Of a stretch of DNA of 64,000 nucleotides, positions 24 through 40,398 are shown one piece after another. A model generated the notes under the pieces. That model was not told the origin of the DNA. It saw only the letters and a list, made by a program, of their open reading frames with translations, and made no database searches. Numbering within the stretch: position 1 is the first letter of the stretch; each line of letters starts with the position of its first letter. The position numbers and the translations under genes are program-made. Origin of the DNA: an uncultured Leptolinea sp. (GTDB lineage Bacteria; Chloroflexota; Anaerolineae; Anaerolineales; Anaerolineaceae); the NCBI GenBank assembly GCA_964420995.1, contig CAYQUX010000019.1, positions 16,323-80,322 on the forward strand, read 5' to 3'.

Positions 24-117
24 TTTGGAATGCTCTTTTCCATACTTCCTTATTAAGTTCTAATTTTAAAAATTGTATTGCTGGTCAATTCCTTGCGCCC
101 GTTCGAAAGGATTTCTG

Positions 118-1623
118 ATGAATTCATTGAAAAATTACGAGATTTGGTTTGTAACAGGCAGTCAGCATTTATATGGGCCGAAAACTCTCGAACAGGTTGC
201 AGATGATTCCCACAAAATTGCGGAACACTTAAATTCAAGCAGCAGTATCCCGGTGAAGGTGGTTTTCAAACCTGTTGTCAAAACGCCGTCCGAAATCCTG
301 GCTGTTTGCAAAGAAGCAAACAACAACAGCGCCTGTATCGGTCTGGTTTGTTGGATGCATACCTTTTCACCAGCAAAGATGTGGATTGCCGGACTTTCTT
401 CGTTAACCAAACCCTGGTGCCATCTTCATACCCAGTTTGGACGGGAAATTCCCTGGTCAGAGATCGATATGGATTTCATGAATCTCAACCAGTCGGCGCA
501 CGGCGACCGCGAATTTGGTTTCATTGGAACCCGAATGCGCCTGAACCGCAAAGTGATCGTTGGGCACTGGCAGGATAAAGATGTTGAACTCAAGCTGGGT
601 AGTTGGGCGCGTTCAGCCGCTGCCTGGGCGGATTCACAGGAAATGAAAGTCGCCCGGTTTGGCGATAATATGCGCGAAGTCGCCGTCACGGAAGGTAACA
701 AAGTTGGCGCGCAGATCCAACTGGGTTATTCCGTATATGGTTACGGCGTGGGTGACCTTGTAAAATTTGTCGACTCAATAACAGAAGATGATGTCGATAA
801 ACTGGTAGCTCGATATACCGAAGAATACCAGGTGTCAAAAGAGATTCTGCAAACAAAGATATTTACGTCATTACGCGAAGCGGCGCGGCTTGAATTGGGT
901 ATGCGCGCTTTCCTTGAAGAAGGAAATTTTAAAGCGTTTACGACAACATTCGAAGACCTGAATGGGATGAATCAGCTCCCGGGGCTGGCCTGCCAGCGCT
1001 TGATGAATGACGGATACGGGTTCGGCGCAGAAGGGGACTGGAAGACGGCCGCCCTGGTTCGTTCCATGAAAGTGATGGGGGCAGGGTTGCCGGGTGGCAC
1101 ATCCTTTATGGAAGATTACACCTATCACCTTCCGGAAAAGGGAACGGACTGTGTTCTTGGTGCCCACATGCTGGAAGTATGCCCTTCCATTGCCAGCGAT
1201 AAACCTTCGTTGCAGGTGTTCCCGCTTTCCATTGGCGGTAAATCTGATCCGGCCCGCCTGCTTTTCAGCACAAAAACCGGCCCGGCTTTGAATGCCAGCC
1301 TGATTGATATGGGCAATCGATTCCGACTGATCGTCAACGAAGTCGATGTTGTGCCGATTGAGAAACCCATGCCCAATTTGCCGGTTGCCCAGGCACTCTA
1401 GGTTCCCAAGCCCAATTTAAAAGTTGCTGCGGCTGCCTGGATTTACGCGGGCGGCGCGCATCACACCGGCTTCAGCCATGTGGTTACCACCGAGATGCTG
1501 CAGGACTTTGCCGAAATGGCCGATATTGAGTGCCTGCTGATCAATGAAAGCACAAACTTGAATGAGTTCAAAAAAGAACTGCGCTTCAACCATCTGTATT
1601 ACTCTCTCGCGAGAGGGCTATAA
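118..1623 (+). pseudogene. araA: L-arabinose isomerase (AraA) interrupted by an in-frame TAG at 1399-1401; otherwise intact, about 502 codons
   Basis: The N-terminus [12 protein letters not shown] is an AraA hallmark. Downstream of the TAG the same frame continues with [15 protein letters not shown]...[12 protein letters not shown], which is the AraA C-terminus. The TAG aligns with a conserved Trp (TGG) of E. coli AraA (ARALWKAQP versus AQAL*VPKP). The ORF track stops at 1401. Confidence 0.8.
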
Positions 1624-1695: not shown

Positions 1696-2787
1696 ATGAA
1701 GAACAAATCAATGCTTTTCATCACCGTATTGATGCTGGTTTCTGTGTTGTTCACCAGCGCTGCCAACTTTGCCCCCGCCCCCGCGGCCGTTGACACCAAG
1801 GGCATGTTGGTTGGTATCTCCATGCCCACCAAGTCATCCGAGCGCTGGATCTCTGATGGCGAGAGCATGAAGAAAGTCTTCGAGGAAATGGGTTACAAAG
1901 TCGACCTGCAGTTCGCTGAAGACGACATCCCCAATCAGATAGCCCAGATCGAAAGTATGGTTACCAAGGACGCCAAAGTCCTGATCATCGCCGCCATCGA
2001 CGGCAGCACCCTGTCTGACGTGCTGGCCAAAGCCAAGGAAAAAGGCGTTCTGGTCATGGCTTATGATCGCCTGATCACCAAGACCAAAGATGTCGACTAT
2101 TACTCCACCTTCGATAACTTCGGTGTCGGCGTTATCCAGGGTACCCAGATCATCGAAGGTCTTGGTTTGAAAGATGGCAAAGGCCCCTTCAATATCGAAC
2201 TGTTCGGCGGCTCCCCCGATGACACCAATGCCTTCTACTTCTATGATGGTGCCATGTCCGTACTGCAACCCTACATCGACAGCAAGAAACTGGTTGTTGT
2301 CTCCGGCCAGATGGGCATGGACAAAGTCTCCACCCTTCGCTGGGACGGCGCTGTTGCACAGGCCCGCATGGACAACCTGCTGAGCAAGAGCTATACCGAC
2401 AAACGTGTTGATGCCGTTCTGTCTCCGTACGATGGCCTCTCCCGCGGTATCATCTCCTCCCTCAAGGGTGTTGGATATGGAACCAAAGACCAGCCGTGGC
2501 CCGTGGTCACCGGTCAGGATGCTGAAGTTGCCTCCGTCAAAGCCATGATCGCCGGCGAACAGGCCTACACCGTCTTCAAAGATACCCGCGAACTGGCCAA
2601 ACAGACAGCCAAGATGGTTGATGCCGCTCTCAAGGGCGAAAAAGTAGAAATCAACGACACCAAGACCTACAACAACGAAGTCAAGATCGTTCCTTCCTAC
2701 CTGCTCACCCCCATCAGCATCGACATCAAGAACTACAAAGAAAAATTGGTTGACAGCGGTTACCTCAAAGCCGAAGACCTGAAGTAA
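1696..2787 (+). CDS. Periplasmic sugar-binding protein of a CUT2-type ABC transporter (PBP type I, ChvE/XylF-like), with signal peptide
   Basis: GGAG RBS and an N-terminal hydrophobic signal. Motifs across the protein are typical of the monosaccharide-binding PBP1 fold. It is followed by a double-NBD ATPase and a permease. Confidence 0.8.
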
Positions 2788-2802
2788 GATTTTCCTAATG
2801 AT

Positions 2803-2837
2803 GAGTGGAGGGAGACTCTCCCTCCACTCACTTTTTT
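2803..2837 (+). terminator. Rho-independent terminator after the binding-protein gene
   Basis: GAGTGGAGGGA-gact-TCCCTCCACTC stem-loop followed by a TTTTTT run. Confidence 0.6.
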
Positions 2838-2929
2838 CACGCGTAAATATGTTGTATAGTTGATAAAATGGCTCGACGGTCATTTTTATTTTTACAGAAA
2901 TCTTTACGAAAGATTCAAGGATGGGCTGC

Positions 2930-4471
2930 ATGTCTGATGTCATTTTGGAAATGCGTAATATCACAAAGACATACCCTGGCGTAAAGGCTCTGGATGATGT
3001 GAATTTCAGTGTCGAACGTGGCGAGATCCATGCCCTGGTTGGTGAAAATGGGGCCGGGAAATCAACGTTGATGAAAGTTTTGAGCGGTGTTATTCCTCAT
3101 GGCGAGTATACCGGCAATATTATCTTTGAAGGCAAAGAATGCCGTTTCAGCGATATCAAACATAGCGAAGATGTCGGTATTGTGATCATTCATCAGGAAC
3201 TGGCTCTTATTCCATTCTTATCCATTGCCGAGAATATTTTCCTGGGGAATGAATGTGAAAAAAACGGTGTAATAAACTGGCGTGAATCTTTTTTACGGAC
3301 CAGAGAACTATTAAAGAAAGTCGGGCTTAAGGAAACACCCGAAACACTCATTACAAATATTGGTGTTGGCAAGCAGCAACTGGTTGAAATTGCCAAAGCA
3401 CTCTCCAAAAAAGTTAAATTGCTAATTCTGGATGAGCCAACTGCCAGTCTCAATGAGAATGACAGTGAAGCTCTTCTTGACTTGCTTGTCGAATTGAAAA
3501 AACAGGGGATGACATCCATTTTGATCTCACATAAGATAGGTGAGGTTTCCAAGGTGGCCGATGTGATCACGATTTTGCGTGATGGCGCCACGATCGAGAC
3601 ACTGGATACCAGAAAAGACCAGGTTACGGAAGACCGAATTATTCGCGGCATGGTCGGACGCGATCTGACCCATCGCTTCCCACCGCGCACTCCGAAGATT
3701 GGCGACAAAATCTTTGAAATTACCGATTGGACTGTGTACCACCCCATTCATGATGACCGCAAGGTTGTGGATGGGGTTGATCTGGAGGTCCATAAGGGGG
3801 AAGTTATTGGTTTGTACGGATTGATGGGTTCCGGGCGCACAGAGCTTGCCATGAGCATCTTTGGTAAAGCCTACGGCCGACGCATAACCGGCAAGGCAAA
3901 AAAGAACGGCAAAGAGGTGGATCTTTCCAGCATCACCAAGGCAATCAAAAATGGGATTACGTACGCGACGGAAGACCGAAAAACATACGGCCTGGTTCTG
4001 ATCCAGGATATCAAGAACAACATTACTCTGGCCAACCTTGAAGATGTGTCTGATGGTCTGGTTGTCAACAAACGCCGCGAATTGAAGTCCACCATGGAAT
4101 ACCGGGGAAAGTTGAATATTAAGTGTTCCAGTATTCAACAGAAAACTCTGAACCTCTCCGGTGGGAACCAGCAGAAAGTCGTGTTGAGTAAATGGTTGTT
4201 TGCCAAACCCGAGATCTTATTCCTTGACGAGCCGACTCGCGGTATCGATGTTGGAGCGAAGTATGAGATCTACACCATCATTAACCAACTGGCCAGTGAA
4301 GGCAAAGCCATTATTCTGATCTCGTCCGAATTGCCGGAAATTCTTGGCGTTTGCGACCGGATCTACATTATGAATGAAGGCAAAATAGTTGGTGAAATGA
4401 AAGCCCAAGAGGCGACGCAGGAAAAAATCATGAAGTGCATCATGTCAGAACAAGAGGTGATGGTTAAATGA
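2930..4471 (+). CDS. Sugar ABC transporter ATP-binding protein with two fused NBDs (MglA/AraG/GguA-like)
   Basis: Two Walker A/ABC-signature sets are present (GENGAGKST ... LSGGNQQKV ... ILDEPT, and a second degenerate set). The ORF track starts at 2921, but the AGGA RBS spacing fits the ATG at 2930 better. Confidence 0.85.
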
Positions 4472-5631
4472 ATACCTTAAAGGATATGTTCAAGAATAAT
4501 ATTCGCTCCTACGGCATGTTGATCGCCCTGGTCGTCATTATGGGCTTCTTCCAGGTGTTGACTGAAGGTACACTTTTCAGGCCGGTCAATCTGACCAACC
4601 TTTTGCTGCAAAACAGCTATATCATCATCATGGCCATCGGTATGTTGTTGATCATCATCACTGGCTGGATTGACCTGTCTGTTGGACGGGTGGCCGGTTT
4701 TGTTGGGGCTGTTGCCGCAATCTTGCTGGTTGATTTTGATTTGAACGTATACCTGACCATGTTGATCTGCCTGATCGTTGGCGCAATAATCGGTGCCATG
4801 CAGGGATACTGGGTTGCGTTCCAGAAGATTCCTCCATTTATCGTCACCCTGGCCGGTATGTTAATATTCCGTGGTTTAACCCTGGCACTGTTAAACGGTA
4901 AATCCGTTGGGCCATTCCCGACAGAATTCCAGCAACTGGCTTCCGGTTTTATTCCCGATGTGTTCAACATGGAAGGTTTTCACCTGACCAGTGTGGTGCT
5001 TGGCGCCATCGGTTCCGCCTTCTTGATCTGGTTGGACATCCGCAACCGCAAGAATAACCAGAAATATGAGTTTGAAGTTTCACCAATACCATTCTTCATT
5101 GCCAAGAATGTGGTGATTACTGCCGCCATTATGGGGCTTTGCTGGCTGATGGCATCATACAAAGGCCTGCCCAATGTGATGATGTTGATGCTCGTTTTGA
5201 TTGTCATCTACACATTTGTTACCGATCAGACCGTGCTCGGCCGGCGCATTTACGCCATGGGTGGCAATGAGAAAGCCGCCCGTCTTTCCGGCGTCAACAC
5301 CCCGCGGCTGCTTTTCGCCACCTTCGTGAATATGGGTGTTCTTTCCGCCATTGCCGGTATGGTGTACGCGGCCCGTTTGAATTCGGCCACTCCCAAAGCT
5401 GGTGACGGTATGGAGTTGGACGTGATCGCGGCGTGCTACATCGGCGGCGCTTCAGCCAGCGGTGGTATCGGTACGGTCGTGGGCGCCATCATCGGAGCGT
5501 TCATTATGGGCGTTTTGAACAATGGTATGTCCATTATGGGTGTCAATATTGACTGGCAGCAGGTGATCAAGGGTCTCGTGCTGCTGTTCGCTGTTTTCTT
5601 TGATGTGTACAACAAGAACAAAAGTGGATAA
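4468..5631 (+). CDS. Sugar ABC transporter permease (GguB/AraH-like, CUT2 family)
   Basis: Polytopic membrane protein. Its ATG overlaps the ATPase stop (ATGA, 4468-4471), which suggests translational coupling. Confidence 0.8.
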
Positions 5632-16075: not shown

Positions 16076-18178
16076 TTATTGCGGAGCGGAGAAAGAAGAA
16101 CCATCCGATCGGGTGATCTTTCCTGATTCCACCGGAATATTATAGATGATTTGATCATCGATCTTCATGGCGTAGAGCCCCGGTGTGAGATTGTAAACAA
16201 CCTGTCCAGAATTGTCTGTGGAATCAGTGAAGACGGTCCCGTCAGGCGCCGCGTAACCGGCTGCGTCTGGTTTCTGCGTATAAATCTTTACATACTTCCC
16301 TTTTATGGGTTGTCCGCTGGCATCTGTCAGCCCAATAACCAGTTGCCCCAGGTTAACGATCACCTGAGACGTCTGCCCGGGGCGAACAGCCACACTGGCC
16401 ATGCCATCCCTGTCGGTCGCGGTGCCCCAGTTGTACCCTGGAAGATCGCTGGCTATAAGATAATGACCGGGGGAAAGCAGAAAGCTGACCGTACCGGTAT
16501 TGTCTGTACTGTAGGAATTCACCTCATCACCGGCGACCCAGTTCCCGGCAATATCCTTCTTCTGGGTCCAAATTTTTACGTATTTATTATCCAATACAGT
16601 TTTGTCTGCCTGCAGGAAGCCGACAGTCAAGATTCCGAGCGATAACCTGACACGGGTCACCTGCCCGGCCTGCACGGGGACATCCGCCTGGCCTTTTACA
16701 TCACCGGCAGTTCCCCAGTTGTACCCGTAGAAGTTAGCCCTGACGATGAAATTTCCTGAGTCCAAATCAAATTCAGCCGTGCCAGCGTTGGATAGTGAAT
16801 CACTGTAAAGTTCACGGTCAATCACCCAGTTGCCCGACAGATCTTTCTTCTGACTGTAAACGCGAATGTAACCTTCACTGACCGGCTGGCCATTCCCATC
16901 ATTGACCATGAAAATCAGCTTTCCCTTTTCCGACCCGGAACTTTCCCCTGTCTGTTCAACCGAGACGCCCTTACCAATCAATTCTTCCAGCGGGCTGGAA
17001 TCTTCCGTTGGTGCCGCGGTGGGAAGGACGACTGCTTGGGCGGCGGCAGGTTCCGGAGCAGCTGCGGTATTTGTTGGTTTCGCCAAAGTGGGGGTATCCG
17101 CCGGTTTCGCGGGAATATCTGTGGGAATAAAAGCCGTGGGAGCCGCGGTTGGTTCGTCAGCTTCAGGAACCACCGGGGCTGTTGAATTTAATATTTCTGA
17201 AATGGGTGTGCCCCTGGATGATGCCGACGACGCTCCGCCAAGCGCATCCTTAATGACCTCCTGCCCGAAAAGGAAGAACCAAAAGGCGCCGCCGGTGATA
17301 AGCATGAGACTAACCACTACAGGAATAATGCAGCCCCATTTGACCTGTTTGGGCGGATTTTCAAGCGCGCGGGCAAAGGCGCCGGCGCTTTTGAAGCGCT
17401 TGTTGGGCTGTTTGCTGAGGGCTTTGAGTATAACCTTGCCCATCTCGCGGGAGATGCCGGAGTTTGAACGGCCGGGGTCCGCCGGCTGCTGTTGTTTGTG
17501 AGCCATCATGTAGCCCATGAGGCTGTCGGCTTCGAAGGGAGTCTTGCCGGTGAACAACTCGTACGCGATGATACCCAGCGAGTAGATATCGGCGGCGGGA
17601 CCGCTGCTCGAACCCATGGCCTGTTCGGGGGACATATATTTGGCTGTACCCATGCCCACCGATTTGGAGGATTGCCCGATGCTTGAAAGAGCGGCATGCG
17701 CCAGACCGAAATCCACCAGGTGGATGTTGCCGCTGTTGTCGACCAGAATGTTGTCCGGCTTTACGTCGCGGTGCACGATCTTTTTGGCATGAGTGGCATC
17801 CAGCGCGGAGGCGATCTGGGTGATGATGTTCAATTTCTGCTGGACCGTGAGGTTCTTGTTGACGGCCATCACTTTGGAGAGCGGTTGGCCGTCAATATAT
17901 TCCATGGCGATATACAACCGGCCGGAAACCTGATCCACCTCGTACACCTTGACGATGTTCGGGTGGTTCAGTTTCTCGATCAGGTGGGCTTCATTGGCGG
18001 CTTTGTTGATGAAGCTCATGTCGCTCATCAGCCCCTGATGCAGTACTTTTAACGCGACATGGCGGTTTTTTTCTGTATCAAGAGCTTTGAAGACTTCCCC
18101 GAAACCCCCATCACCGATCTTGGCGATGAGGCGGTATTTCCCGAACATTGGTGCGTTTTGTGTGGCCGGTGATTCCAT
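16076..18178 (-). CDS. Ser/Thr protein kinase with TM helix, Pro/Ala/Thr-rich linker and three C-terminal internal repeats (β-sandwich, carboxypeptidase-regulatory/Cna-B-like)
   Basis: Hanks motifs GDGGFGEV, HRDVKPDNIL, DFG and SPE are present. The repeats are GNWV...DSTDNTGTV...GYNWGTA (three times). GGGAGA RBS. Confidence 0.85.
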   Translation of the reverse strand: MESPATQNAPMFGKYRLIAKIGDGGFGEVFKALDTEKNRHVALKVLHQGLMSDMSFINKAANEAHLIEKLNHPNIVKVYEVDQVSGRLYIAMEYIDGQPLSKVMAVNKNLTVQQKLNIITQIASALDATHAKKIVHRDVKPDNILVDNSGNIHLVDFGLAHAALSSIGQSSKSVGMGTAKYMSPEQAMGSSSGPAADIYSLGIIAYELFTGKTPFEADSLMGYMMAHKQQQPADPGRSNSGISREMGKVILKALSKQPNKRFKSAGAFARALENPPKQVKWGCIIPVVVSLMLITGGAFWFFLFGQEVIKDALGGASSASSRGTPISEILNSTAPVVPEADEPTAAPTAFIPTDIPAKPADTPTLAKPTNTAAAPEPAAAQAVVLPTAAPTEDSSPLEELIGKGVSVEQTGESSGSEKGKLIFMVNDGNGQPVSEGYIRVYSQKKDLSGNWVIDRELYSDSLSNAGTAEFDLDSGNFIVRANFYGYNWGTAGDVKGQADVPVQAGQVTRVRLSLGILTVGFLQADKTVLDNKYVKIWTQKKDIAGNWVAGDEVNSYSTDNTGTVSFLLSPGHYLIASDLPGYNWGTATDRDGMASVAVRPGQTSQVIVNLGQLVIGLTDASGQPIKGKYVKIYTQKPDAAGYAAPDGTVFTDSTDNSGQVVYNLTPGLYAMKIDDQIIYNIPVESGKITRSDGSSFSAPQ

Positions 18179-18311
18179 GGTTGTTGTTCTCCCACTTTTT
18201 TCTGGTTTTTACTTTTCAGATTGAAGATTGTTTATAAGGAGGAAACATGTTTCATTTATTAGAAAGAGTCAGGTCTGGTAGATTAATACCTGATTTATCC
18301 CATCTTCCATA

Positions 18312-19826
18312 TTAGCACCCTCGCCCACGCCACTCACATAATGGAGTGGGCGAGGGGATAAGATACATGATCGTAAGCCGGTCGTTTTTGTAAATCTCCT
18401 TTTGTGATTCTTTAAGAACCAGCTTAACCCGTACCAATTGTTTATCCTTCAACTGGGGAACATCGCAAAATATTCTTTCCGGGTGGTCTTTGTATTTAAC
18501 TAAGCAGGGATATTCTTTGCCATCGATTAATGCGACGATTTCCGGGTAATCTCCAATATCCAGCATGCGGAATACCAGACTGAAAATCTTTCCTGTAAGA
18601 TCATAGGTGGAGATTAGTTCCACCCGGGAAAAATTCAATGTAGGTTTCGGGGTGGCCTCTTTTGTCGGAGTCCCTGTAGGAAAAATGATTTCCCCGCTCG
18701 CAATAGCTGAATACGGAGATAATGTAGGTGCGTTTGCCACGTACTCAGCAACACCTTCCGTTTTGATGGCCGCAATGGTTGCCTCGTTCAATGCTTTGTT
18801 TATTTGTATCTCTCGGGCGGTTGTTGTGGGGTGAGACCCGGTGTCTATTTTGATGGAATTAAGGATTTTGCCTTCAGCCCACAGACAGAATCCCGAAATG
18901 ATGATGAAGCCGGCGGCGGCAAATAACAGGCTCTTTTTTCTGTTAGAGGATTTTTTTATTACCTGAGGTGTGGCGGGAGAGGTGTTTTCTGATGATCTCA
19001 ACCCGCTCCGTAGTTCCTGCATGGCGCGATATCCATTCCAGGGACGATCCCCGGCTTTCTCGGAAAGCATGCGCCCGACAAGGTCATTCAACCATACCGG
19101 CACGGTTGGATTGAGACTCATCAATCGTGTTCCGGGTTCCAGTGATTTGTAATTGCGGCCGGTCAACATCTCAAAGATCAACAGTCCCAGGGTGTAGATA
19201 TCCGACGCGGGGCGCAAGTAGGCGCCTGTGGTCTCCTGCTCCGGGCTCATATAAGCCGGTGTGCCGGGATGCGTTTTGGCCACGCTGAGCTGCGAGCGCA
19301 TGCTGGCGCCGCCCGGAACCTGCGCCAGTCCCAGGTCAGCTACTTTCGCTTTACCCTGAGCGTCAAACAGAATGTTTGAAGGTTTCAGGTCGCGATGGAT
19401 GATATCTTTTCCGTGCAGGGCAGCGAGGCCTTCGGCGACATCAATGGCAATCTTGACGGTTTCTTCAACGCTAAAGGCTGTACCGTTTTCGGCCGCCTGT
19501 TCCATGCGTTGCTTTAAATTCCCGCCCGGCGCGTACTCCATGATCAGATAGAGAATCTTTTTCTCTTCCTGGAAGTCATACACCCTGATCAGATAGGGGT
19601 TATCAAACCATTCCATCAGTTGCGATTCCTGGCGGAAGCGGTTGCGGTAATCATTGTAGTCAGAACTGCCAATACCCGATTCGTCGTGCTGTAAGACCTT
19701 GATGGCGCGTTTGCCATTCAACTCTGTATGGGTGGCCAGATATACTTCCCCAAATGTCCCCAACCCGATACTTTTTTCAATACGGTAATACTTAAGAATT
19801 ACATCGTTTTCATTGAAATTTTTCAT
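18312..19826 (-). CDS. Ser/Thr protein kinase; sixth member of the NEND-IVL paralog family, with TM and a C-terminal domain of unknown fold
   Basis: The N-terminus FNENDVILKYYRIEKSIGLGTFGEVYLAT...RAIKVL...HRDLKPSNILFD...ADLGLAQ is 60-70% identical to the kinases at 35702-54236. Confidence 0.85.
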   Translation of the reverse strand: MKNFNENDVILKYYRIEKSIGLGTFGEVYLATHTELNGKRAIKVLQHDESGIGSSDYNDYRNRFRQESQLMEWFDNPYLIRVYDFQEEKKILYLIMEYAPGGNLKQRMEQAAENGTAFSVEETVKIAIDVAEGLAALHGKDIIHRDLKPSNILFDAQGKAKVADLGLAQVPGGASMRSQLSVAKTHPGTPAYMSPEQETTGAYLRPASDIYTLGLLIFEMLTGRNYKSLEPGTRLMSLNPTVPVWLNDLVGRMLSEKAGDRPWNGYRAMQELRSGLRSSENTSPATPQVIKKSSNRKKSLLFAAAGFIIISGFCLWAEGKILNSIKIDTGSHPTTTAREIQINKALNEATIAAIKTEGVAEYVANAPTLSPYSAIASGEIIFPTGTPTKEATPKPTLNFSRVELISTYDLTGKIFSLVFRMLDIGDYPEIVALIDGKEYPCLVKYKDHPERIFCDVPQLKDKQLVRVKLVLKESQKEIYKNDRLTIMYLIPSPTPLCEWRGRGC

Positions 19827-19878
19827 TACTATCCCCGGTTAATAAAAATCCATGGAAGGATATTATACCCAAACTGGT

Positions 19879-21897
19879 TTAAGACTCGTTTGTAATCTCT
19901 ATCTCACTCATTACCATGTCTCCCACCTCCACACGGATGGGTTCATCTTTGAAACCTTTCAGCTTGATCTTCCCCTTGACCATGTCGCCGGCTTTTATGG
20001 TGATTGGCGCGGGTGTGGCCAGTATTTTCCCGGTGAAGAAATGCCGGAAGGGTTCTCCGCGTTCTTTTCGATCCACACATTCAACGCACACATCCAATTG
20101 GTTCTCCAACCGGGTGGGGGTGATGTTCATGGTAAGGTGCCACCAGCGGTTGGCAGGAATTTCCTGCTGCGGGTCGGCTGAGAAATGCACGGAATGCAGC
20201 AGGGTGCCGCCCACATGTACATCAATGTTGCGCGCCGGGGCGCGGCCGGTATTCTTGATGCGCAGGGTGATTTCACCGCTTTCATGCTGGATTAAGGTCG
20301 GGTTGGTAGCCAGTTCCAGGCACAGATAGGGCAAAGGTGACAGCGCTCCCGCCCTGTTGCGCATTTTTTCCGCCGCTTCCGACTGATTATCCTGGTCCAG
20401 TACGTCCGCCGCGAGCAGGCAGTAGAAAGCCGCCCGACCGGGATCGCGGATACTCCATATCTGTGAAGCCTTCTCGTAACCATCCGCGGCGCGCTGGCGT
20501 TCTCCCACGCCCTGCCACAGGCGGGCGCCCCATTCAGGTTCATACTCCCGCTCCCAATTCTCGTTCGCTTTTTCGAGAAGAGAAATTCGTTTATCTATGT
20601 CCAGGCTCCATTGCGCCTGCAGGACATATTGTTCGGCGGCATCCCGCGGTTGATTATGGGCATCGAGCATTTGCGCCGCCCACATATGCTGTCCGCCATG
20701 GAAGGGCATGCTCCATAAACGCCCGCCGGGTTCGCCAATGGGATTGGTGCTGCGCGTAGAGAATAGCACCCGGTCATTGTGCCTGAGCAGGTTCCCACAA
20801 ATGGACCAGTGCATGCTGGAAGATTCACCGTACTGCCAGATGATCTCCCCGGAGTCAATGTTCAAACCGTACGTTTGACCGTGAGAATCTCCGCAAATCA
20901 GCAGTGCGTCATTCCAGATGAGCGGACGAACCATCACCGTGCCGCCCAGGTTGGTTTGCCACTCAATTTCGCCGGTTTGCCGGTTCAGGCAGCGCATTTG
21001 ATGATCTCCCGCGCCAAAGAACAGGTGGTTGCCAGATAGCGCGAGTCCACCCAGGCGAATGACGGAATTTTTTGAATTGACTCCTTCGAATGTCCAGGCG
21101 ATCTTCCCGGTTGAATCGACCGCATAAAGATGACCATGGTCATCGCTGGTATACAGCAGGGAACCACCGGGAACCAGAAGGTCTGTGAGATAAACGTGAT
21201 CGCTGGCGGTAAATATGGAGGAGTAGTTTTTCCCCTGTATCCGCAGAACCTGACCGGGACGTGTTCCCGTGGCCAGATAAAACGTATTGTTATTATGAAT
21301 CAAAAATTTCTGTGGGGGATTTAGACGGGGAGTGGTATCCCAGTGGCAGATGGATCCGCCCTTTCGACCGGCTGGATTGATGCTGACAATAGAGCCATCG
21401 CTAACAGCGCAGTAGGCCCACTCTGTGTTGAATGAAACAATCTTGGGCGTGACCGGGTAGGGGAAATCGTACGACCAGGCCAGTTCAAAATCCCTGTTGA
21501 ATACCAGCATGCGGGCCGGATCCGGCGCGCGCCGCCCGGTTAACTGAAGAATCCAATCGCCGAAAATGACTGGTGAGCCGATGGCCGGTCGGTCAAGGGG
21601 GAATTTCCAGATCGTCTCCTGCGTATCGGTATCCAGACACATCAATCCGCCCTCGGGAAGACCGATGGTGACTTCGTCGCTGTACCGGTTCCACGCGGCC
21701 AATACCCTGGTACTTCCCATCTCAGTCAACCCGACCGGTTTGCCGGGAAGGTTGACTTGCCAATCAGGGGTGAGCGGCGGCTTGATCAGGCGACGTTTTT
21801 CGCGCGCTGTGCCGCAGATCGGGCAGGCGGGCGCGGCCGGAGGATAATATGACAGACAATTTGTGCAAAAAAGGGAAGGAATGGATTTCTCGGTCAT
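19879..21897 (-). CDS. Zinc-ribbon / PQQ-like β-propeller / TPR-like / CARDB-like multidomain protein
   Basis: N-terminal CxxC...CxxC. Repeated TGEIEWQ/SGEIIWQ/TQETIWKF propeller blades. A helical repeat region. A C-terminal β-sandwich motif (ITLRIKNTGRAPARNIDVHV). It is a paralog of 25583..28312. Confidence 0.65.
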   Translation of the reverse strand: MTEKSIPSLFCTNCLSYYPPAAPACPICGTAREKRRLIKPPLTPDWQVNLPGKPVGLTEMGSTRVLAAWNRYSDEVTIGLPEGGLMCLDTDTQETIWKFPLDRPAIGSPVIFGDWILQLTGRRAPDPARMLVFNRDFELAWSYDFPYPVTPKIVSFNTEWAYCAVSDGSIVSINPAGRKGGSICHWDTTPRLNPPQKFLIHNNNTFYLATGTRPGQVLRIQGKNYSSIFTASDHVYLTDLLVPGGSLLYTSDDHGHLYAVDSTGKIAWTFEGVNSKNSVIRLGGLALSGNHLFFGAGDHQMRCLNRQTGEIEWQTNLGGTVMVRPLIWNDALLICGDSHGQTYGLNIDSGEIIWQYGESSSMHWSICGNLLRHNDRVLFSTRSTNPIGEPGGRLWSMPFHGGQHMWAAQMLDAHNQPRDAAEQYVLQAQWSLDIDKRISLLEKANENWEREYEPEWGARLWQGVGERQRAADGYEKASQIWSIRDPGRAAFYCLLAADVLDQDNQSEAAEKMRNRAGALSPLPYLCLELATNPTLIQHESGEITLRIKNTGRAPARNIDVHVGGTLLHSVHFSADPQQEIPANRWWHLTMNITPTRLENQLDVCVECVDRKERGEPFRHFFTGKILATPAPITIKAGDMVKGKIKLKGFKDEPIRVEVGDMVMSEIEITNES

Positions 21898-22137
21898 GGT
21901 TCAACGTCACTTTATCGCGGGGATTCGGATGGGCGGAAAGGATTACCTGTGTTGAACGACGCTCTGCCGGGCTGTGTGAGTACGTTGTTGTTCAAGCTGG
22001 AGCCCGGATTATCCTGATTTGGATGGAAAAAATGTACAAATATTTCAATAATTGTAAACATAATCAGGATAACTGGCAACCAGCGGACTGAATTTGTTGC
22101 CTGCCAACACTGAAATTATTATACACAACTTGTCCAA

Positions 22138-22200
22138 TGTACACAATAGTACAAATTATCACTTGACAAGGTGATTAAAATTATGTACTATTTTGTACAT
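22138..22200 (+). promoter_or_regulatory. Promoter TTGACA(22163)-17-TACTAT with two GTAC-type palindromes (TGTAC-acaata-GTACA and ATGTAC-tatttt-GTACAT, the second overlapping the -10)
   Basis: Sequence read directly. It lies upstream of the first gene of the long plus-strand operon, in the divergent intergenic region. Confidence 0.45.
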
Positions 22201-22228
22201 AAGGGGTTCGCAACTGAATGAGGTGTTA

Positions 22229-23464
22229 ATGAGCGATCCAAAGTCTGATCCTGAATACTTGAAAATTGGTGAAGCCGCCCGTTTCCTGGGTGTTAATCCG
22301 CGGACGATCTACCGGCGAGTCTGGAGCGGTGAACTACCGGCTGCTCGAATAGGCGGTTTGTATTTCATTCGCAAATCAGATCTCCAGGCACTTTTATCAC
22401 AACGCCAGCCTGAAACACCCGAAGAAACAGCATTGAACGCGGAACCCTTGAAGTGTTCCCTGTGTTACCGTTTGCTTTCCAGTGATAGTCTGATCGGCGA
22501 AGTGTGCAGCGCGGATGGATGTCAGGAGATCATCTGTGTGGACTGTGTGTCCAAAGGATTTCATTACTGTTCGCGGCATTTGCCATCCCTTGAACAACGT
22601 CTGGCGGAAGCGGAACAGCGCTACCGCAATGGTCAAATCTCCATGCTGGTCAGGGCCAGTTCGGCTCGGTTGCGTGAGCTTAATTTCCTCAACCGCCTGC
22701 GCACCCGCCTGCAATCCATGAATTCTCTCCTGCACCCTGTGACCGGAGAAGTGATTGATGTGCCCGATTGGTCGGCTATTCTTGAACAGGGAGACAGCCG
22801 CGCCGAGGTGATGCACCTGCTCGGGAAAGTGGTCATCGGTACCGATACGCTTTCCAGAACGCCGCTCAATACCTGGCTGACGGGAAGCCCCGCGCTGCCC
22901 AAAGGCGCCAGGGGGGTGCCGGTGCGCATCGAGATGCGTGTTCTCAGCCGGCTGACTGAAATGGTACAGAATGGCTACGACAGCCGCCCCATGAAGGAGG
23001 AAGACCTTGTTCCCCTGCTGACGCGCTATTCAGACGAAACACGCCAGGATATGGAAGTACGGCTGATCGTGCTGGCTTCCGTGACCGGTTGGGACGAAAC
23101 CGCCCGCATGGTGGTACAGGGATTGGCCGGAGAAAAGGTCCGGCTGCCCTTTGCTCAACGCTCTATGATGCTCTATCTTTTTGACCTTGAAAAAGGCGAC
23201 CTGATCTTTAACACGCAGGATGAACGCACCCGGCGGTACGCGGAATTGTTTGTTCCCACCCTGCCCACGGAAGAACTGGATGAGGTCAAAGTGGCGATTG
23301 AAAAAGAGATGGTGGTGTACGATAGTCTCACCCTTGAAAATGCCGTGCAGGATCTGTCGTATTCCCGTTCTCAAATTGAAATGGCTTTTGAACGCCTGGC
23401 TTCCACCGGGCGCTATACCCTGGTCCAGCTTCCCAATCTGGGGCTGACCATCGCACGCAAATAA
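22229..23464 (+). CDS. HTH (MerR/excisionase-type) DNA-binding protein with a Cys-rich zinc-finger and a C-terminal domain of unknown function
   Basis: The N-terminus YLKIGEAARFLGVNPRTIYRRVWSGELPAARIGGLYFIRKSDL is HTH_17-like. The Cys-rich motif is CSLC...CSADGC...CVDC...C. The start is trimmed to MSDPKS. Confidence 0.6.
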   Translation: MSDPKSDPEYLKIGEAARFLGVNPRTIYRRVWSGELPAARIGGLYFIRKSDLQALLSQRQPETPEETALNAEPLKCSLCYRLLSSDSLIGEVCSADGCQEIICVDCVSKGFHYCSRHLPSLEQRLAEAEQRYRNGQISMLVRASSARLRELNFLNRLRTRLQSMNSLLHPVTGEVIDVPDWSAILEQGDSRAEVMHLLGKVVIGTDTLSRTPLNTWLTGSPALPKGARGVPVRIEMRVLSRLTEMVQNGYDSRPMKEEDLVPLLTRYSDETRQDMEVRLIVLASVTGWDETARMVVQGLAGEKVRLPFAQRSMMLYLFDLEKGDLIFNTQDERTRRYAELFVPTLPTEELDEVKVAIEKEMVVYDSLTLENAVQDLSYSRSQIEMAFERLASTGRYTLVQLPNLGLTIARK

Positions 23465-23479
23465 AACCTTCTGGAGGAA

Positions 23480-24181
23480 ATGGACATGGTTGAGAGAAAG
23501 ACGATTGTTGATTTTGGACTGAACGTGCTGCGCGACCTGTTGAACAACACAGGGAAATCACAACCCGCGCCTGAAGCCGTAAAGAAGATGAAGCTGGAAG
23601 AAATTCCTCTTGATACCCTGAAGAAGGAAAGAACCATCCTGGAACAGGAAGAAAAGAAAACACTCACCCGTCTGCGCGAATTGGAAGCCCGCAAACGCCA
23701 GTTGTTCAGCGAAGGTGTGCAGGGAAACATCAGCGATCGTGAGCAGACTGTTCTGGCCCGCAAGATCAAAGAGATGGATTCGGAGGTTGCCGGGTTGGAC
23801 ACCGTCCTTCAGGTCCTGTCCAAACAAATGCGCGTGCTTACCGGTCTTGTTCAGGTCAAAGAACGCTCACTTCTTCTCTCACCCAACAGCAGCACCATCC
23901 TTTCCCAGTTGAACATGGATGATGTGCTTACTTACGTGAACATGGCCAGTGCGGACGGTGAATTCCAGATCAACAAGTTCGATGACCTGTTGCGTGCCAT
24001 GGATATGAACAATTCCATCGCTCCGGAATTCAAGGAAGAAGCCGATGTTCTGGAGATCAAGAAAGCCATGCAGCGCGCCCGTGAAGCCGGGGAACATATG
24101 GAAGAAAAGATTGATGAAGAGTTGAAATCTCTTCAAGAGAAAAAAGCCCAATCCGGGTTGGAAAACAACTTAACCGACTGA
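23480..24181 (+). CDS. Snf7/ESCRT-III-like (PspA/Vipp1 superfamily) coiled-coil protein
   Basis: 233 aa. The N-terminal half is basic and the C-terminal half acidic, with helices α1/α2 matching the ESCRT-III hairpin pattern (LEQEEKKTLTRLRELEARKRQL ... ARKIKEMDSEVAGLDTVLQVLSKQMRVL). An acidic helix follows (MDDVLTYVNMA...). The gene is 37 bp upstream of a MIT-AAA ATPase. The true start may be the second ATG (23486), given the GGAGGA RBS spacing. Confidence 0.5.
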   Translation: MDMVERKTIVDFGLNVLRDLLNNTGKSQPAPEAVKKMKLEEIPLDTLKKERTILEQEEKKTLTRLRELEARKRQLFSEGVQGNISDREQTVLARKIKEMDSEVAGLDTVLQVLSKQMRVLTGLVQVKERSLLLSPNSSTILSQLNMDDVLTYVNMASADGEFQINKFDDLLRAMDMNNSIAPEFKEEADVLEIKKAMQRAREAGEHMEEKIDEELKSLQEKKAQSGLENNLTD

Positions 24182-24218
24182 AACCCGGTAATTACTCTGT
24201 GATATTTAAGGGGACTCT

Positions 24219-25412
24219 ATGCCCGTAGACCTTGGAGACATGGCATTCGCTGAATACAAACGCGCGCTAAAGAGGGCGGAGGATGCGCAGCGCAAAGGCG
24301 CGACCATTGAGGCGGCGTCATCATTCCGGCAATGCGCAGAACTGTACCGCCAGTACGCCAACGCAAGCGGTGATCCGGCGACAAAGCAACAACGCCTCAA
24401 GAAGGTGCAATTTCTTCTGGACAGGGCGAAGTCTCTTGACCCCATGCCGGCCAACCAGAAACCCGCCTCACCGCGGCAGACAACCGCGCCGATATCCACT
24501 GAGGCGGCAAACGCGGATGATTATGAAAGTGAAGTAATGAATCTCGTCCAGAAAACGAGTATTCGCTGGGACGAAATCGGCGGTCTGGAGGATACCAAGA
24601 ACGCCATCAAATCCGCTTACGGTCTTGCGTTAGCCAAAAAACCGCAAGGTGTTCAGATCAGCGGATGGCGCAATGTGCTCCTGTTTGGCCCTCCGGGAAC
24701 CGGTAAGACACTGCTGGCGGCTGCCACAGCGGGCAGTCTGGATGCCACCTTCTTTAATGTCAAGGTCAGTAATGTGCTTTCCAAATACTTTGGTGAAAGC
24801 AGCAAGCTGGTAAGCGCCCTTTATGCCGCCGCACGCAGGCACAGCCCGGCTGTCATCTTTCTGGATGAGTTTGAATCCCTCACCCCGCCGCGCGGTTCAG
24901 GGGAAAGCGGCGCGGAAAGGCGCATCGTCAGCACTCTGCTCGCTGAATTGGATGGTCTGGCGACTAAAGAGGACGAGAGTTTCATCCTTACCATGGGCGC
25001 CACGAATGTGCCCTGGCTGCTTGATTCGGCCATCCTGAGTCGCTTTCAACGCCGCATCTATGTCCCATTGCCGGATGACGCCGCGCGCGAAGCCATCCTG
25101 AACATCCACCTGACCCGGCAGGGGCACAAGACCGATCAACCGATCAGTGAATGGGTGCGGCAGACCGGCGGGTATTCCGGCCGGGAGATCGAACAGATCT
25201 GCCAGACAGCCATTGGGCAGATGACTCAGCGCACCAACCCGAATTTGCTGGACCTGGTGGATAAAGGGCAGGCTGCAGTGCGCGATTATGAGATCAAGGT
25301 GGAGCCGCTGAGGGCCGATGACCTGCAGGCCGCATTAAAGCAAATCCACCCTGTGGCCAACGCTGACATGCTGCGCCGCTATGATGACTGGACGCGCAAG
25401 GCGGATGATTGA
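24219..25412 (+). CDS. Vps4-like AAA+ ATPase (meiotic clade) with an N-terminal MIT domain
   Basis: MIT-like three-helix N-terminus (AFAEYKRALKRAEDAQRKG...AELYRQYA...LKKVQFLLDRAKSL). The AAA core GPPGTGKT is present. FFNVKVSNVLSKYFGESSKLV, GATNVPWLLDSAILSRFQRRIYVPLPD and the C-terminal helix DLQAALKQIHPVANADMLRRYDDWTRK match Vps4/katanin hallmark segments nearly residue-for-residue. Confidence 0.85.
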   Translation: MPVDLGDMAFAEYKRALKRAEDAQRKGATIEAASSFRQCAELYRQYANASGDPATKQQRLKKVQFLLDRAKSLDPMPANQKPASPRQTTAPISTEAANADDYESEVMNLVQKTSIRWDEIGGLEDTKNAIKSAYGLALAKKPQGVQISGWRNVLLFGPPGTGKTLLAAATAGSLDATFFNVKVSNVLSKYFGESSKLVSALYAAARRHSPAVIFLDEFESLTPPRGSGESGAERRIVSTLLAELDGLATKEDESFILTMGATNVPWLLDSAILSRFQRRIYVPLPDDAAREAILNIHLTRQGHKTDQPISEWVRQTGGYSGREIEQICQTAIGQMTQRTNPNLLDLVDKGQAAVRDYEIKVEPLRADDLQAALKQIHPVANADMLRRYDDWTRKADD

Positions 25413-25582
25413 TAATTACCCGGCATTATCGGGTACTTAAAAGGAAGCCAGAGAGAGTTTCGCATGGATGCAAATGGTACGAAAGTGTACAGGCAACAAT
25501 TCGGACATACAGGGATATTACCAGGTAGGGTATACCCTGTTCGTACTAACCGATTAATTCTTGATAAATAGGAAAATCACCG

Positions 25583-28312: not shown

Positions 28313-28318
28313 TCATTT

Positions 28319-29788: not shown

Positions 29789-29823
29789 AATCTGACAGCA
29801 GATCAACAGCGCAGGAAAATTAA

Positions 29824-31170: not shown

Positions 31171-31199
31171 CGAAACAACTTTATTAAAAGGAAGATAGC

Positions 31200-32801: not shown

Positions 32802-32824
32802 CAACCATACATCAGGAGGATAAA

Positions 32825-35098: not shown

Positions 35099-35114
35099 TA
35101 AAAGAGGGGATGGA

Positions 35115-35537
35115 ATGACCATGAAATTCAAAAACAGCTTTGTTTTGATCAGCCTGATGCTGGCGCTGGGTTTCGCCGGACTGATCGGTGGGCAGGTATT
35201 CGCGCAGGATGCCACAACCACACCGGATACTTCAATCAGTGTTTTGGAGCAGACCAGCGGACCGGCGACGCAAGTCCCCACGGCCGAACCGACTCTAGCG
35301 GTTACAGAGTCCGCGCCGGCGACGGAAGTACCGTCAACTCCGGCTGCCCCAAAATCATACTGGACGCTGGCGTTGGGCATCGCCCTTCTGGGAGTTTTCC
35401 TGTACGCGTATGCCCGGCGCTGGTCGAACAAACCAAAGCCGGCGGCGGAACGCTGTGCGCGTTGCGGTTTTGACCTGACCGGCAAGGCAGGTCCCTGCCC
35501 GCAATGCGGAAGCACGAGGCGTCTGCCGAAGGTGTAA
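35115..35537 (+). CDS. Small secreted/TM protein with a C-terminal zinc ribbon
   Basis: AGAGGGG RBS and the ATG at 35115. It has a signal/TM, a Thr/Pro-rich segment, a second TM, and CARCG...CPQCG. Confidence 0.55.
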   Translation: MTMKFKNSFVLISLMLALGFAGLIGGQVFAQDATTTPDTSISVLEQTSGPATQVPTAEPTLAVTESAPATEVPSTPAAPKSYWTLALGIALLGVFLYAYARRWSNKPKPAAERCARCGFDLTGKAGPCPQCGSTRRLPKV

Positions 35538-35566
35538 GGCTTCCAAAATTTGTCTAGTCCTGACTG

Positions 35567-35603
35567 CTTCCCCATAGGTTTGTCACTATGGGGAAGTACT
35601 TTT
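35567..35603 (+). terminator. Rho-independent terminator closing the 22.2-35.5 kb operon
   Basis: CTTCCCCATAG-loop-CTATGGGGAAG followed by TACTTTTGT. Confidence 0.5.
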
Positions 35604-35701
35604 GTCACTACTATTCATTATGTAAAATACATGGTGGTAAATGGTATTAAAATAGTATTAGATTCAAAAACACTCAATCCCGTGACTTAAGGCAGGCAAC
35701 T

Positions 35702-40313: not shown

Positions 40314-40398
40314 ACTTGTTTATGGTTTCTATGATGTCTACGGGATACCTATGAAGAAAAGCTTCTTAAGATAAACCAGAGATATTGACCTTCCCGGC

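Follow-up and report, generated by a model that had tools for sequence, protein, structure and literature searches.

The window analysed here, the whole stretch of 64,000 nucleotides from an uncultured Leptolinea sp., opens on an arabinose locus whose genes all lie on the + strand:

73..1623, + strand: araA (L-arabinose isomerase); NCBIfam NF002795, 719 bits, model positions 1-427 of 499
1696..2787, + strand: ChvE-type multiple-monosaccharide ABC-transporter substrate-binding protein (SBP), 363 aa; NCBIfam ChvE equivalog
2921..4471, + strand: GguA, ATPase subunit of the ChvE/GguAB importer; scores 863 bits on the NCBIfam GguA equivalog (cutoff 810)
4468..5631, + strand: GguB, permease subunit of the ChvE/GguAB importer; scores 581 bits on the NCBIfam GguB equivalog (cutoff 450)

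The araA frame is interrupted by an in-frame TAG at 1399..1401, leaving an ORF of 73..1401 and a same-frame continuation of 73 codons to 1623. Downstream of araA, the SBP belongs to Peripla_BP_4 (Pfam E 6e-62), passes the NCBIfam ChvE model NF040907 from end to end (541.1 bits where 460 are required, covering model positions 1-324 of 324), and is 72% identical to ChvE of A. tumefaciens (3URM; E 3e-152). Its N-terminus bears a hydrophobic signal or anchor (aa 4-26) without a lipobox Cys, and, as is characteristic of ChvE, it is encoded with its GguA and GguB. By its sequence, 1696..5631 is an ordinary chvE-gguA-gguB multiple-monosaccharide ABC importer that follows araA. The SBP probably serves to bring in L-arabinose, and also galactose and xylose, to be fed into catabolism; ChvE itself binds arabinose and galactose tightly (Kd 0.47 and 0.13 uM) and xylose weakly (17 uM; PMC8050422 Table 1). 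Base composition gives no sign of horizontal acquisition of the operon, the GC content of the locus (0.48-0.49) being close to that of the rest of the window.

The receptor-kinase array

Between 35.7 and 54.2 kb, the window carries an array of predicted receptor kinases, designated K1 to K7:

35702..37906, + strand: K1, receptor Ser/Thr kinase with a YtfQ-like (furanose-type) PBP1 ectodomain (Pfam Pkinase and Peripla_BP_4)
38031..40313, + strand: K2, receptor Ser/Thr kinase with a XylF-type ectodomain (Pfam, NCBIfam, AF2, Foldseek)
40399..42177, + strand: K3, receptor Ser/Thr kinase with an FGE-sulfatase (SUMF1-like) ectodomain (Pfam)
42246..43874, + strand: K4, receptor Ser/Thr kinase (Pfam kinase domain only; transmembrane helix, TM, at aa 323-346)
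43984..47016, + strand: K5, receptor Ser/Thr kinase with LysM and XylF-type domains (Pfam, NCBIfam, alignment)
47034..49721, + strand: K6, receptor Ser/Thr kinase with an SBP_bac_1 (CUT1 carbohydrate-type) ectodomain (Pfam)
50889..54236, + strand: K7, receptor Ser/Thr kinase with an SBP_bac_5 (oligopeptide/oligosaccharide-type) ectodomain (Pfam)

K2 and K5 are, as predicted from their translations, single-pass Hanks-type Ser/Thr kinases composed of a cytoplasmic kinase, a helical stalk, one TM helix, and an extracellular domain. Both match Pfam Pkinase (E 1.8e-46 for K2 and 1.5e-44 for K5), and the motifs GQGSFGEV (GxGxxG), RAIKVL (AIK), HRDLKPSN (HRD), DLG, and SPE are legible in translation. 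In K2, the kinase (aa 1-290) is followed by a helical juxtamembrane segment, the TM helix (aa 360-382; 39108..39176), an S/T/P-rich linker, and the XylF-type ectodomain (aa 425-760; 39303..40313). In K5, the kinase domain leads into a Glu/Arg/Lys-rich helical linker of about 160 aa and a TM helix (aa 493-518; 45460..45537), beyond which lie a LysM domain (aa 578-619; 45715..45840) and the XylF-type ectodomain (aa 676-1010; 46009..47016). The two sensor domains share 54% identity.

Five members of the array (K1, K2, K5, K6, and K7), together with a gene at 18312..19826, have kinase domains that are 62-90% identical, followed by a helical stalk and one TM helix; K6 and K5 agree at 87% of kinase positions, and K7 and K6 at 90%. 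The kinase domain of K3 falls in a different paralog group (28% identity to K2). What differs along the array is the ectodomain, mostly of a transporter type: YtfQ-like, XylF-like twice, SBP_bac_1, and SBP_bac_5. K1, with its single TM at aa 377-404, finds its best NCBIfam model in YtfQ (260 bits, under the 510-bit cutoff) and its best PDB match in mycobacterial YtfQ (6HB0; E 8e-69), while the ectodomain of K6 gives weak PDB matches to the sugar-binding lipoproteins 3VXB and AcbH, and that of K7 matches DppA-type proteins in the PDB. No Pfam family matched the C-terminal ectodomain of K4. In a related metagenome, a syntenic array carries other ectodomains, Peripla_BP_6 and WD40 among them. Seen across these sequences, the array has the appearance of a set of nutrient-sensing receptor kinases that arose through ectodomain swapping.

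Ancestry of the K2 and K5 sensors

The original prediction regarded the arabinose-locus SBP as a full-length paralog of the K2 and K5 ectodomains, and much of what it described is readily recovered. The ORFs lie exactly where it placed them, and the sequences contain, letter for letter, the motifs that it quoted (12 protein letters / IGLSFSDFATERW / IGLSFGDLQSQRW, and the xxGQDA...KD strings). The alignment is borne out by BLASTP, covers the whole mature protein, and goes far beyond chance: 32% identity with K2 over 365 columns (SBP 9-356, K2 400-741; E 1.4e-41) and 29% with K5 over 337 columns (SBP 36-362, K5 676-997; E 4.2e-34). K1, the other PBP1-bearing kinase, yields only a weak match (E 6e-4 over 72 residues), and the SBP gives no BLASTP match to K3, K4, or K6. 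The resemblance goes beyond a generic fold with a non-conserved pocket, because all three domains share the central residues of the sugar pocket (R16, W17, D90, R91, D135, W169, D222, and K242 in E. coli XylF numbering).

It is nonetheless a different subfamily to which the sensors are closest. Their best NCBIfam family is XylF (TIGR02634), at 273 bits for K2 and 241 for K5, against 211 and 173 bits on the ChvE model, where the cutoff is 460. Both stay under the XylF equivalog cutoff of 389.55 bits, on a scale where the two-domain Leptolinea XylF of a xylFGH-xylA operon scores 580 bits over its two domains, or about 290 each. The solved structures closest to the sensors by sequence are XylF 3M9W and 4YWH (E 1e-55), and a Foldseek search with an AF2 model of the K2 ectodomain (pLDDT 96) places XylF 4YWH, 3MA0, and 3M9W (E about 1e-32, TM 0.85-0.92) ahead of ChvE (E 1.7e-27). 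Anaerolineae lipoprotein XylF proteins are 58-67% identical to the K2 sensor and 52-61% to that of K5, against 32% and 30% for the SBP of the window. In a neighbour-joining tree of 27 sequences, 100 of 100 bootstraps recover an Anaerolineae XylF clade that includes K2 and K5, 99 of 100 unite all XylF, and 100 of 100 hold together a ChvE clade that includes the SBP. The kinase-fused XylF domains were also considered as a monophyletic group, which appeared in 0 of 100 bootstraps of that tree.

These comparisons bear directly on the proposal that the ectodomains are paralogs derived from the arabinose-locus SBP and sense the sugars imported by ChvE/GguAB, as a covalent version of ChvE-VirA. Homology along the full length (E 1e-41 and 4e-34), a shared pocket core, and the weak binding of D-xylose by ChvE (PMC8050422 Table 1) all speak for it, but the proposal is very unlikely to be right, given the far higher identity to transporter XylF, the separate clades at 99-100% bootstrap, and the agreement of family models and structure search in preferring XylF. 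Positions related to specificity divide along the same line: residue 196 is N in XylF, K2, and K5 and Y in ChvE and the SBP, W165 is replaced by M, and a ChvE-specific 7-residue insertion before W169 is lacking in K2 and K5. Furthermore, the SBP locus and the kinases stand 35 kb apart with unrelated genes between, nothing in the sequence of the window links them functionally, and there is no indication of a VirA-like partner or a signalling role for the ChvE of the window. The idea of a signalling branch recruited from a transport SBP thus stands in its general form, in that the ectodomains clearly descend from ABC-transporter binding proteins; the donor, however, would be XylF and not the neighbouring ChvE. 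The likeness between SBP and kinases comes from membership in one protein family, as two CUT2 sugar-binding subfamilies, and it reads only as old, ordinary family-level homology. The sequence comparisons support instead the derivation of the K2/K5 ectodomains from the Anaerolineae lineage of XylF, the SBP of the D-xylose transporter.

In other Anaerolineae, lipoprotein XylF relatives of K2 and K5 belong to xylFGH-xylR-xylA operons; one of them (P0003, Leptolinea sp. HRD-7) is accompanied by an ABC ATPase, an ABC permease, a ROK regulator, and xylA, the ATPase having xylose-type XylG as its best model (684 bits, slightly under the cutoff of 699) and xylA reaching 526 bits where TIGR02631 requires 447. 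In GTDB, the 25 closest loci (L006-L030) are likewise XylF genes, transporter-linked wherever the contig runs beyond the gene. None of them is fused to a kinase in this species-representative scan, among whose recovered genomes the window's own is not found, and the XylF-kinase fusion would therefore be rare. In a search of 1.84 billion representatives, kinase-only matches dominate the best 150, and at least two fused clusters occur (the K5 representative and P0127). XylF as a stand-alone secreted or lipid-anchored transport protein, encoded with xylG/xylH, is not what K2 and K5 present: their XylF-type domains are fused C-terminally to Pkinase and one TM, their neighbours are other kinases, and no transporter genes were found beside them among the window ORFs, xylGH not being adjacent.

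The tethered XylF domains could still serve transport by docking on a XylGH importer encoded elsewhere, with the kinase reporting engagement or flux. The similarity of K2 to transporter XylF (up to 67%) equals that among those proteins themselves, and K2 has the C-terminal tail "DVYRDIP..PP.P" that is common to the Anaerolineae XylF proteins; several binding domains per transporter are moreover normal in Anaerolineae, since their XylF proteins are tandem two-domain lipoproteins. We nevertheless consider such a role improbable: the kinases lack adjoining transporter genes, no kinase is attached at any transporter-linked locus examined, and the same chassis also bears ectodomains of other than transporter type, an FGE-sulfatase in the window and WD40 in the relative, which fits a generic sensor role. 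The best overall explanation, and a fairly likely one, is a ChvE importer alongside separate, XylF-derived receptor kinases, K2 and K5, within an ectodomain-swapping array.

Predicted ligands and signalling

K2 keeps the sugar pocket of XylF complete. Twelve of 12 pocket positions (E15, R16, W17, D90, R91, D135, N136, N137, W169, N196, D222, and K242) carry the residue of E. coli XylF both in K2 and in its ortholog P0002; we take these, N136 apart, to be the D-xylose contacts of E. coli XBP (3MA0). The list reportedly goes back to the E. coli XBP structure paper of Sooriyaarachchi et al. from 2010; the numbering was matched on the 3M9W alignment and the conservation pattern checked. At an overall identity of 38%, full agreement at 12 positions would arise by chance with a probability of about 1e-5. 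Because all of these positions are kept, D-xylose, bound directly, is the most likely predicted ligand of K2. In K5, by comparison, part of the XylF pocket has changed (E15Q, N136P, N137A), and the domain probably recognises something else or is differently tuned, its predicted ligand being uncertain owing to these three changes and the extra LysM domain. The expectation that the kinases sense the same class of sugar that the transporter imports consequently holds only loosely, with ChvE tight on arabinose and galactose, K2 predicted to bind D-xylose, and K5 altered in its pocket.

Other kinase-fused relatives have pocket changes of their own: P0025 (E15V, R16Y, W17L, N136F), P0029 (R91C, N137S), and P0031 (W17L, N137S). 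In the group P0037-P0041 the pocket is severely degenerate. With the pockets of P0025, P0029, P0031, and K5 damaged, a fused XylF domain is no guarantee of xylose binding. Such substitutions and decay, along with the LysM domain of K5, would accord with fused domains that are decaying or repurposed scaffolds, no longer binding monosaccharides and regulated otherwise, for example through clustering or cell-wall contact via LysM. There is little to be said for this with respect to K2, where every pocket position persists, as it does in P0002, despite 28% divergence between the two (72% identity) and 62% from E. coli XylF, and where structure prediction assigns the fold very high confidence; we hold the scaffold explanation to be highly doubtful.

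How binding might be relayed is inferred by analogy. On binding sugar, the Venus-flytrap ectodomain of K2 or K5 would shut its two lobes together; this closure may then alter how receptor dimers pair or are oriented across the single TM helix and coiled stalk, and the altered dimer could switch trans-autophosphorylation and substrate phosphorylation.

Several known systems share parts of this design. The ectodomain of K2 is of the same subfamily and fold as E. coli XylF/XBP (3M9W, 3MA0) and the Anaerolineae lipoprotein XylF proteins (e.g., Leptolinea sp. HRD-7 hrd7_05930). Those transport proteins are free or lipid-anchored, and the Anaerolineae ones are tandem pairs, whereas K2 and K5 each have one XylF-type domain as the C-terminal ectodomain of a single-pass Ser/Thr kinase. 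In ChvE-VirA of Agrobacterium tumefaciens, a CUT2 sugar-binding protein likewise informs a membrane kinase, but as a separate SBP touching a histidine kinase; the sensor of K2 and K5 is fused, XylF-type, and coupled to a Hanks-type Ser/Thr output. According to the summary in PMC8050422, XylFII-LytS of Clostridium beijerinckii (5XSJ) employs a XylF-like protein dedicated to signalling, which senses D-xylose and whose ligand drives receptor oligomerisation; it is a non-covalent complex of SBP and histidine kinase that acts on a response regulator, in contrast to the fused Ser/Thr kinases K2 and K5. 5XSJ is absent among the best 50 structural matches of K2. K2 and K5 may thus work like SBP-dependent two-component systems without being members, given that they have no separate SBP docking on a histidine kinase.

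Covalent attachment has a precedent in BT1754 of Bacteroides thetaiotaomicron (2X7X, "SENSOR PROTEIN"), where a PBP1 sugar-binding domain is part of a membrane sensor kinase. Its ligand is fructose, its output is that of a histidine kinase/response-regulator hybrid, and its sensor, which sequence search links to the SBP, K1, and K2 (E 4e-9 for K2), is more distant from K2 than XylF is. Eukaryotic natriuretic-peptide receptors combine an ANF_receptor PBP1 ectodomain, a single TM, and a kinase-homology domain. Like these receptors, the PASTA kinases PknB and PrkC are single-pass proteins with an extracellular ligand domain and a cytoplasmic kinase-fold domain; natriuretic-peptide receptors, however, bind peptides and signal via guanylate cyclase, and PASTA domains bind muropeptides with a fold unrelated to the K2/K5 ectodomain. 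For PknB and PrkC, ligand-dependent dimerisation is the accepted model (PMC6213207). The only characterised control of a bacterial Ser/Thr kinase by an SBP is GlnH-GlnX-PknG of Actinobacteria (PMC8050422), which differs in that three separate, unfused proteins relay the signal, the SBP is an amino-acid binder whose fold belongs to another class, and the kinase is soluble.

A characterised Ser/Thr kinase with a fused sugar-binding protein was not found in the literature searched (reviews of SBP-receptor interactions and of Ser/Thr kinase architectures). More tentatively, and with a little less than even confidence, the sequences suggest that 35.7-54.2 kb may be a diversifying receptor-kinase locus of Leptolinea-like Anaerolineae, in which one kinase-stalk-TM chassis repeatedly captures ABC-transporter binding domains, and K2 the first bacterial Hanks-type kinase with a defined small-molecule nutrient ligand (D-xylose) on a covalently fused, transporter-type SBP. 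If so, these bacteria would possess a panel of direct nutrient receptors that signals through Ser/Thr phosphorylation and not through two-component systems.

Such kinases also matter for annotation: pipelines label them "D-xylose transport system substrate-binding protein", and the predicted transport capacity of such MAGs would be inflated as a result of this mislabelling. The activators of bacterial Ser/Thr kinases are mostly unknown, and K2, a rare member with a predictable activating signal, offers a concrete predicted ligand, D-xylose, that is testable because its ectodomain is an almost unaltered xylose-binding protein. More broadly, the array suggests that some Chloroflexota sense sugars and oligomers via receptor kinases made of transporter parts, in parallel with eukaryotic Venus-flytrap receptors and with Bacteroides histidine kinases that carry a fused PBP.

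Architecture of the receptor-kinase array

At least 10 Hanks-type Pkinase genes reside in the window, within 16076..54236, seven of which, the receptor Ser/Thr kinase (STK) genes K1–K7, are arranged head to tail or almost so. Five of the window kinases carry substrate-binding protein (SBP) ectodomains of ABC transporters, from three Pfam families (Peripla_BP_4 three times, SBP_bac_1, and SBP_bac_5).

Kinase genes of the array, with the basis of each assignment
35702..37906, K1: YtfQ-like PBP1 ectodomain (best PDB match 6HB0, E 8e-69)
38031..40313, K2: 760 aa (ORF listing); XylF-like ectodomain (family models, structure matches)
40399..42177, K3: FGE-sulfatase ectodomain (Pfam)
42246..43874, K4: ectodomain without Pfam match (Pfam)
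43984..47016, K5: 1010 aa, GTG start (ORF listing); LysM and XylF-like ectodomain (Pfam)
47034..49721, K6: SBP_bac_1 ectodomain (Pfam, PDB matches)
50889..54236, K7: SBP_bac_5 ectodomain (Pfam, PDB matches)

The kinase domains of K1, K2, K5, K6, K7, and gene 18312..19826 form one paralog group at 62–90% identity; those of K3 and K4 fall outside it, in other groups (27–46%). K7 is a 1115-aa kinase whose SBP_bac_5 domain is of the Dpp/Opp type. The C-terminal part of K4 (aa ~400–542), with no Pfam match, bears Cys and Trp-rich motifs ('CTWNGSMNGTE', 'CYGKLN'), and this ectodomain may constitute a new sensor domain. Next to the array, we recognised neither a phosphatase nor an FHA protein nor any gene of sugar catabolism.

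A locus from JGI metagenome 3300048599 (L086, 1..22274) is syntenic with 24219..49721 of the window. Common to both is an upstream block of an AAA ATPase, a 447-aa unknown protein, a Band_7/SPFH protein, a double zinc ribbon, and a small ORF, which might be functionally tied to the array kinases. The L086 kinases are, in order, STK-YtfQ-like, STK-XylF-like (P0002, an ortholog of K2 at 72% identity), STK-WD40, STK-Peripla_BP_6, STK-SBP_bac_1, and STK-Peripla_BP_4, such that WD40 and Peripla_BP_6 kinases take the place of the window's FGE-sulfatase and unknown-ectodomain kinases. The array locus is kept between relatives while its ectodomains turn over.

K2 and K5 both begin with an N-terminal Pkinase domain (Pfam) with intact kinase motifs, and each has one strongly hydrophobic segment between kinase and binding domain (K2 aa 360–382, K5 aa 493–518), which defines a topology of cytoplasmic kinase, single transmembrane (TM) helix, and extracellular binding domain. 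Between the kinase domain and TM helix of K5 (~44836..45349) run ~160 aa of Glu/Arg/Lys/Ala-rich repeats ('EERARLEAEE...'), with equivalent stretches in K6 (~47900..48200) and K7; these spacers resemble a single alpha-helix or coiled coil, and the K1 and K2 linkers are far shorter. After the binding domain, K2 (40260..40313) and K5 (46960..47016) end in a 'DVYRDIPxxxxPPxP' tail that is found on every Anaerolineae XylF domain and as the interdomain linker of two-domain lipoproteins; E. coli XylF and ChvE have no such tail.

XylF-type sensors and a ChvE-type transport protein

It was originally suggested, from full-length similarity, that the K2 and K5 ectodomains were recruited from the 363-aa binding protein of the arabinose locus (the window SBP) and sense the class of sugar that the transporter imports. 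All three open reading frames exist (1696..2787, 38031..40313, and 43984..47016), the quoted motif strings occur in them as written, and the full-length similarity is genuine: by BLASTP, window SBP residues 9–356 match K2 400–741 at 32% identity over 365 columns (E 1.4e-41), and K5 is matched at 29% over 337 columns (E 4.2e-34). Pfam assigns Peripla_BP_4 to all three proteins alike.

Finer classification places the kinases elsewhere. On the xylF model TIGR02634, K2 and K5 score 273 and 241 bits, against 211 and 173 bits on the ChvE model. By sequence, the K2 ectodomain matches E. coli XylF (3M9W, E 1e-55) and 4YWH better than ChvE (E 1e-40); its AlphaFold2 model (mean pLDDT 96) retrieves 4YWH, 3MA0, and 3M9W (E ~1e-32, TM 0.85–0.92), with ChvE next (E 1.7e-27). 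In a 5.8-billion-protein database, its nearest relatives are Anaerolineae lipoproteins of 718–740 aa, built from two nearly identical XylF-like domains. The K2 and K5 sensors are 58–67% and 52–61% identical, respectively, to the Anaerolineae transporter XylF domains, 36–39% to E. coli-type XylF, and 30–32% to the window SBP. By neighbour joining, K2, K5, and Anaerolineae XylF form one clade (100/100 bootstraps), joined by E. coli-type XylF in 99/100; ChvE, 4WWH, and the window SBP make up a clade of their own in 100/100. The K2 and K5 ectodomains are XylF-type, not ChvE-type. Since family models, structures, identities, and tree all separate the two, the resemblance between SBP and kinases is an old XylF–ChvE subfamily divergence with no local duplication, and their paralogy is ordinary; the same evidence disfavours the window SBP as ectodomain donor.

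In Leptolinea sp. HRD-7, a XylF-like lipoprotein gene is followed by genes for an ABC ATPase (top model xylose-type XylG, 684 bits, slightly below the cutoff of 699), an ABC permease, a ROK-family regulator, and a xylose isomerase (526 bits on TIGR02631, cutoff 447), a set that reads as a xylose utilisation operon. The tandem XylF domains are almost identical within each lipoprotein (L001 8001..10223 of AP024710.1, P0006, P0016, P0022), which suggests recent or concerted duplication; P0042 has a single XylF domain and a C-terminal extension of ~400 aa in place of the pair.

The arabinose-locus protein is a textbook ChvE. It scores 541 bits on the NCBIfam ChvE model (equivalog cutoff 460), is preceded by araA (719 bits) and directly followed by GguA (863 bits, cutoff 810) and GguB (581 bits, cutoff 450), and shares 72% identity with Agrobacterium tumefaciens ChvE (3URM) and 61% with the mycobacterial homolog 4WWH. 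Its 90%-identity cluster includes an annotated Leptolinea sp. MAG protein, consistent with the Anaerolineae affiliation of all close kinase relatives. Its signal region (1696..1780) lacks a lipobox cysteine, in contrast to the Anaerolineae XylF lipoproteins; an uncleaved signal anchor might hold it at the surface of this presumably monoderm Chloroflexota cell. Within araA (73..1623), an in-frame TAG at 1399..1401, at what we take from the E. coli AraA sequence to be a conserved Trp, is followed by 73 final codons in the same frame. It could be a nonsense mutation, pseudogene, population variant, or sequencing error, and bears on the functionality of the locus.

Sugar pocket and distribution of the fusion

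Pocket positions follow E. coli XylF numbering, verified against the 3M9W alignment. To what we take to be the ligand contacts in 3MA0 (E15, R16, W17, D90, R91, D135, N137, W169, N196, D222, and K242) we added N136, giving twelve positions. All twelve are identical among K2, P0002, E. coli XylF, 4YWH, and the Leptolinea transporter XylF proteins, a conservation pattern that stands on its own. The pocket core of R16, W17, D90, R91, D135, N137, W169, D222, and K242 recurs in the window SBP and ChvE, which depart in Y at 196, M at 165, P at 195, L at 199, and a 7-residue insertion ahead of W169. These departures, with the XylF-type assignment, disfavour the reading that kinases and transporter respond to the same sugars. 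We read K2, from its sequence, as a predicted D-xylose binder, and ChvE as having its own, broader specificity; the Agrobacterium protein binds arabinose at 0.47 uM, galactose at 0.13 uM, and xylose at 17 uM (PMC8050422, Table 1).

K5 carries E15Q, N136P, and N137A, and other kinase-fused relatives have eroded pockets as well (P0025, E15V/R16Y/W17L; P0029, R91C; P0031, W17L). In our view, K5 and some of these have diverged towards a different ligand or a different way of being regulated. A decayed scaffold is plausible for K5 and not for K2, whose pocket is intact, and as an overall account is highly improbable.

XylF–kinase fusions seem to be rare. The 25 loci nearest to the K2 ectodomain among GTDB species representatives (54–60% identity, all from Chloroflexota) encode XylF and have xylG/xylH behind them wherever the contig continues, several also with a ROK regulator and xylA; none of the 25 has a kinase attached. 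It is unlikely that the K2 ectodomain is itself a tethered transport domain, docking on a XylGH importer encoded elsewhere while the kinase reports engagement. A handful of fused forms were seen in large protein collections (P0002, P0025, P0029, P0031, P0127, and the K5 cluster), and because they do not cluster (monophyly in 0/100 neighbour-joining bootstraps), several fusion or exchange events are suggested. In a separate set of kinases (P0036–P0041), the domains branch closer to ChvE. P0036 (1090 aa, ENA metagenome), a Ser/Thr kinase with two CUT2 domains in tandem that lie nearer ChvE than XylF, has an almost intact, XylF-like pocket (N196 included); here a kinase took up a sugar SBP independently.

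Proposed signalling model and relation to known sensors

With K2 as a xylose sensor, xylose would close the two lobes of the ectodomain, closure would alter how the receptors pair across the one TM helix and the helical stalk (in K5, K6, and K7 a Glu/Arg/Lys-rich segment of ~160 aa), and the altered pairing would change kinase trans-autophosphorylation. Eukaryotic receptors with a PBP1 ectodomain offer one analogy. Two others are the PASTA kinases, whose dimerisation is ligand-induced (PMC6213207), and XylFII–LytS, where xylose induces a heterotetramer (PMC8050422).

The XylF–kinase architecture is present in databases, automatically annotated as xylose transport protein. Sensors that incorporate a binding-protein fold are familiar, from BvgS-type Venus-flytrap kinases, class C GPCRs, and natriuretic-peptide receptors to the BT1754 hybrid sensor. 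The periplasmic domain of BT1754 (2X7X) can be detected by sequence as a relative of the window SBP, K1, and K2. Free SBPs that signal to histidine kinases are likewise known, as in ChvE–VirA and XylFII–LytS. The sole Ser/Thr kinase case in a review of SBP signalling is the indirect GlnH–GlnX–PknG relay (PMC8050422), and the STK reviews examined and the 2025 STK atlas make no mention of sugar-SBP ectodomains. The architecture is moderately interesting in that a bacterial Ser/Thr kinase gains a predicted, testable small-molecule ligand.
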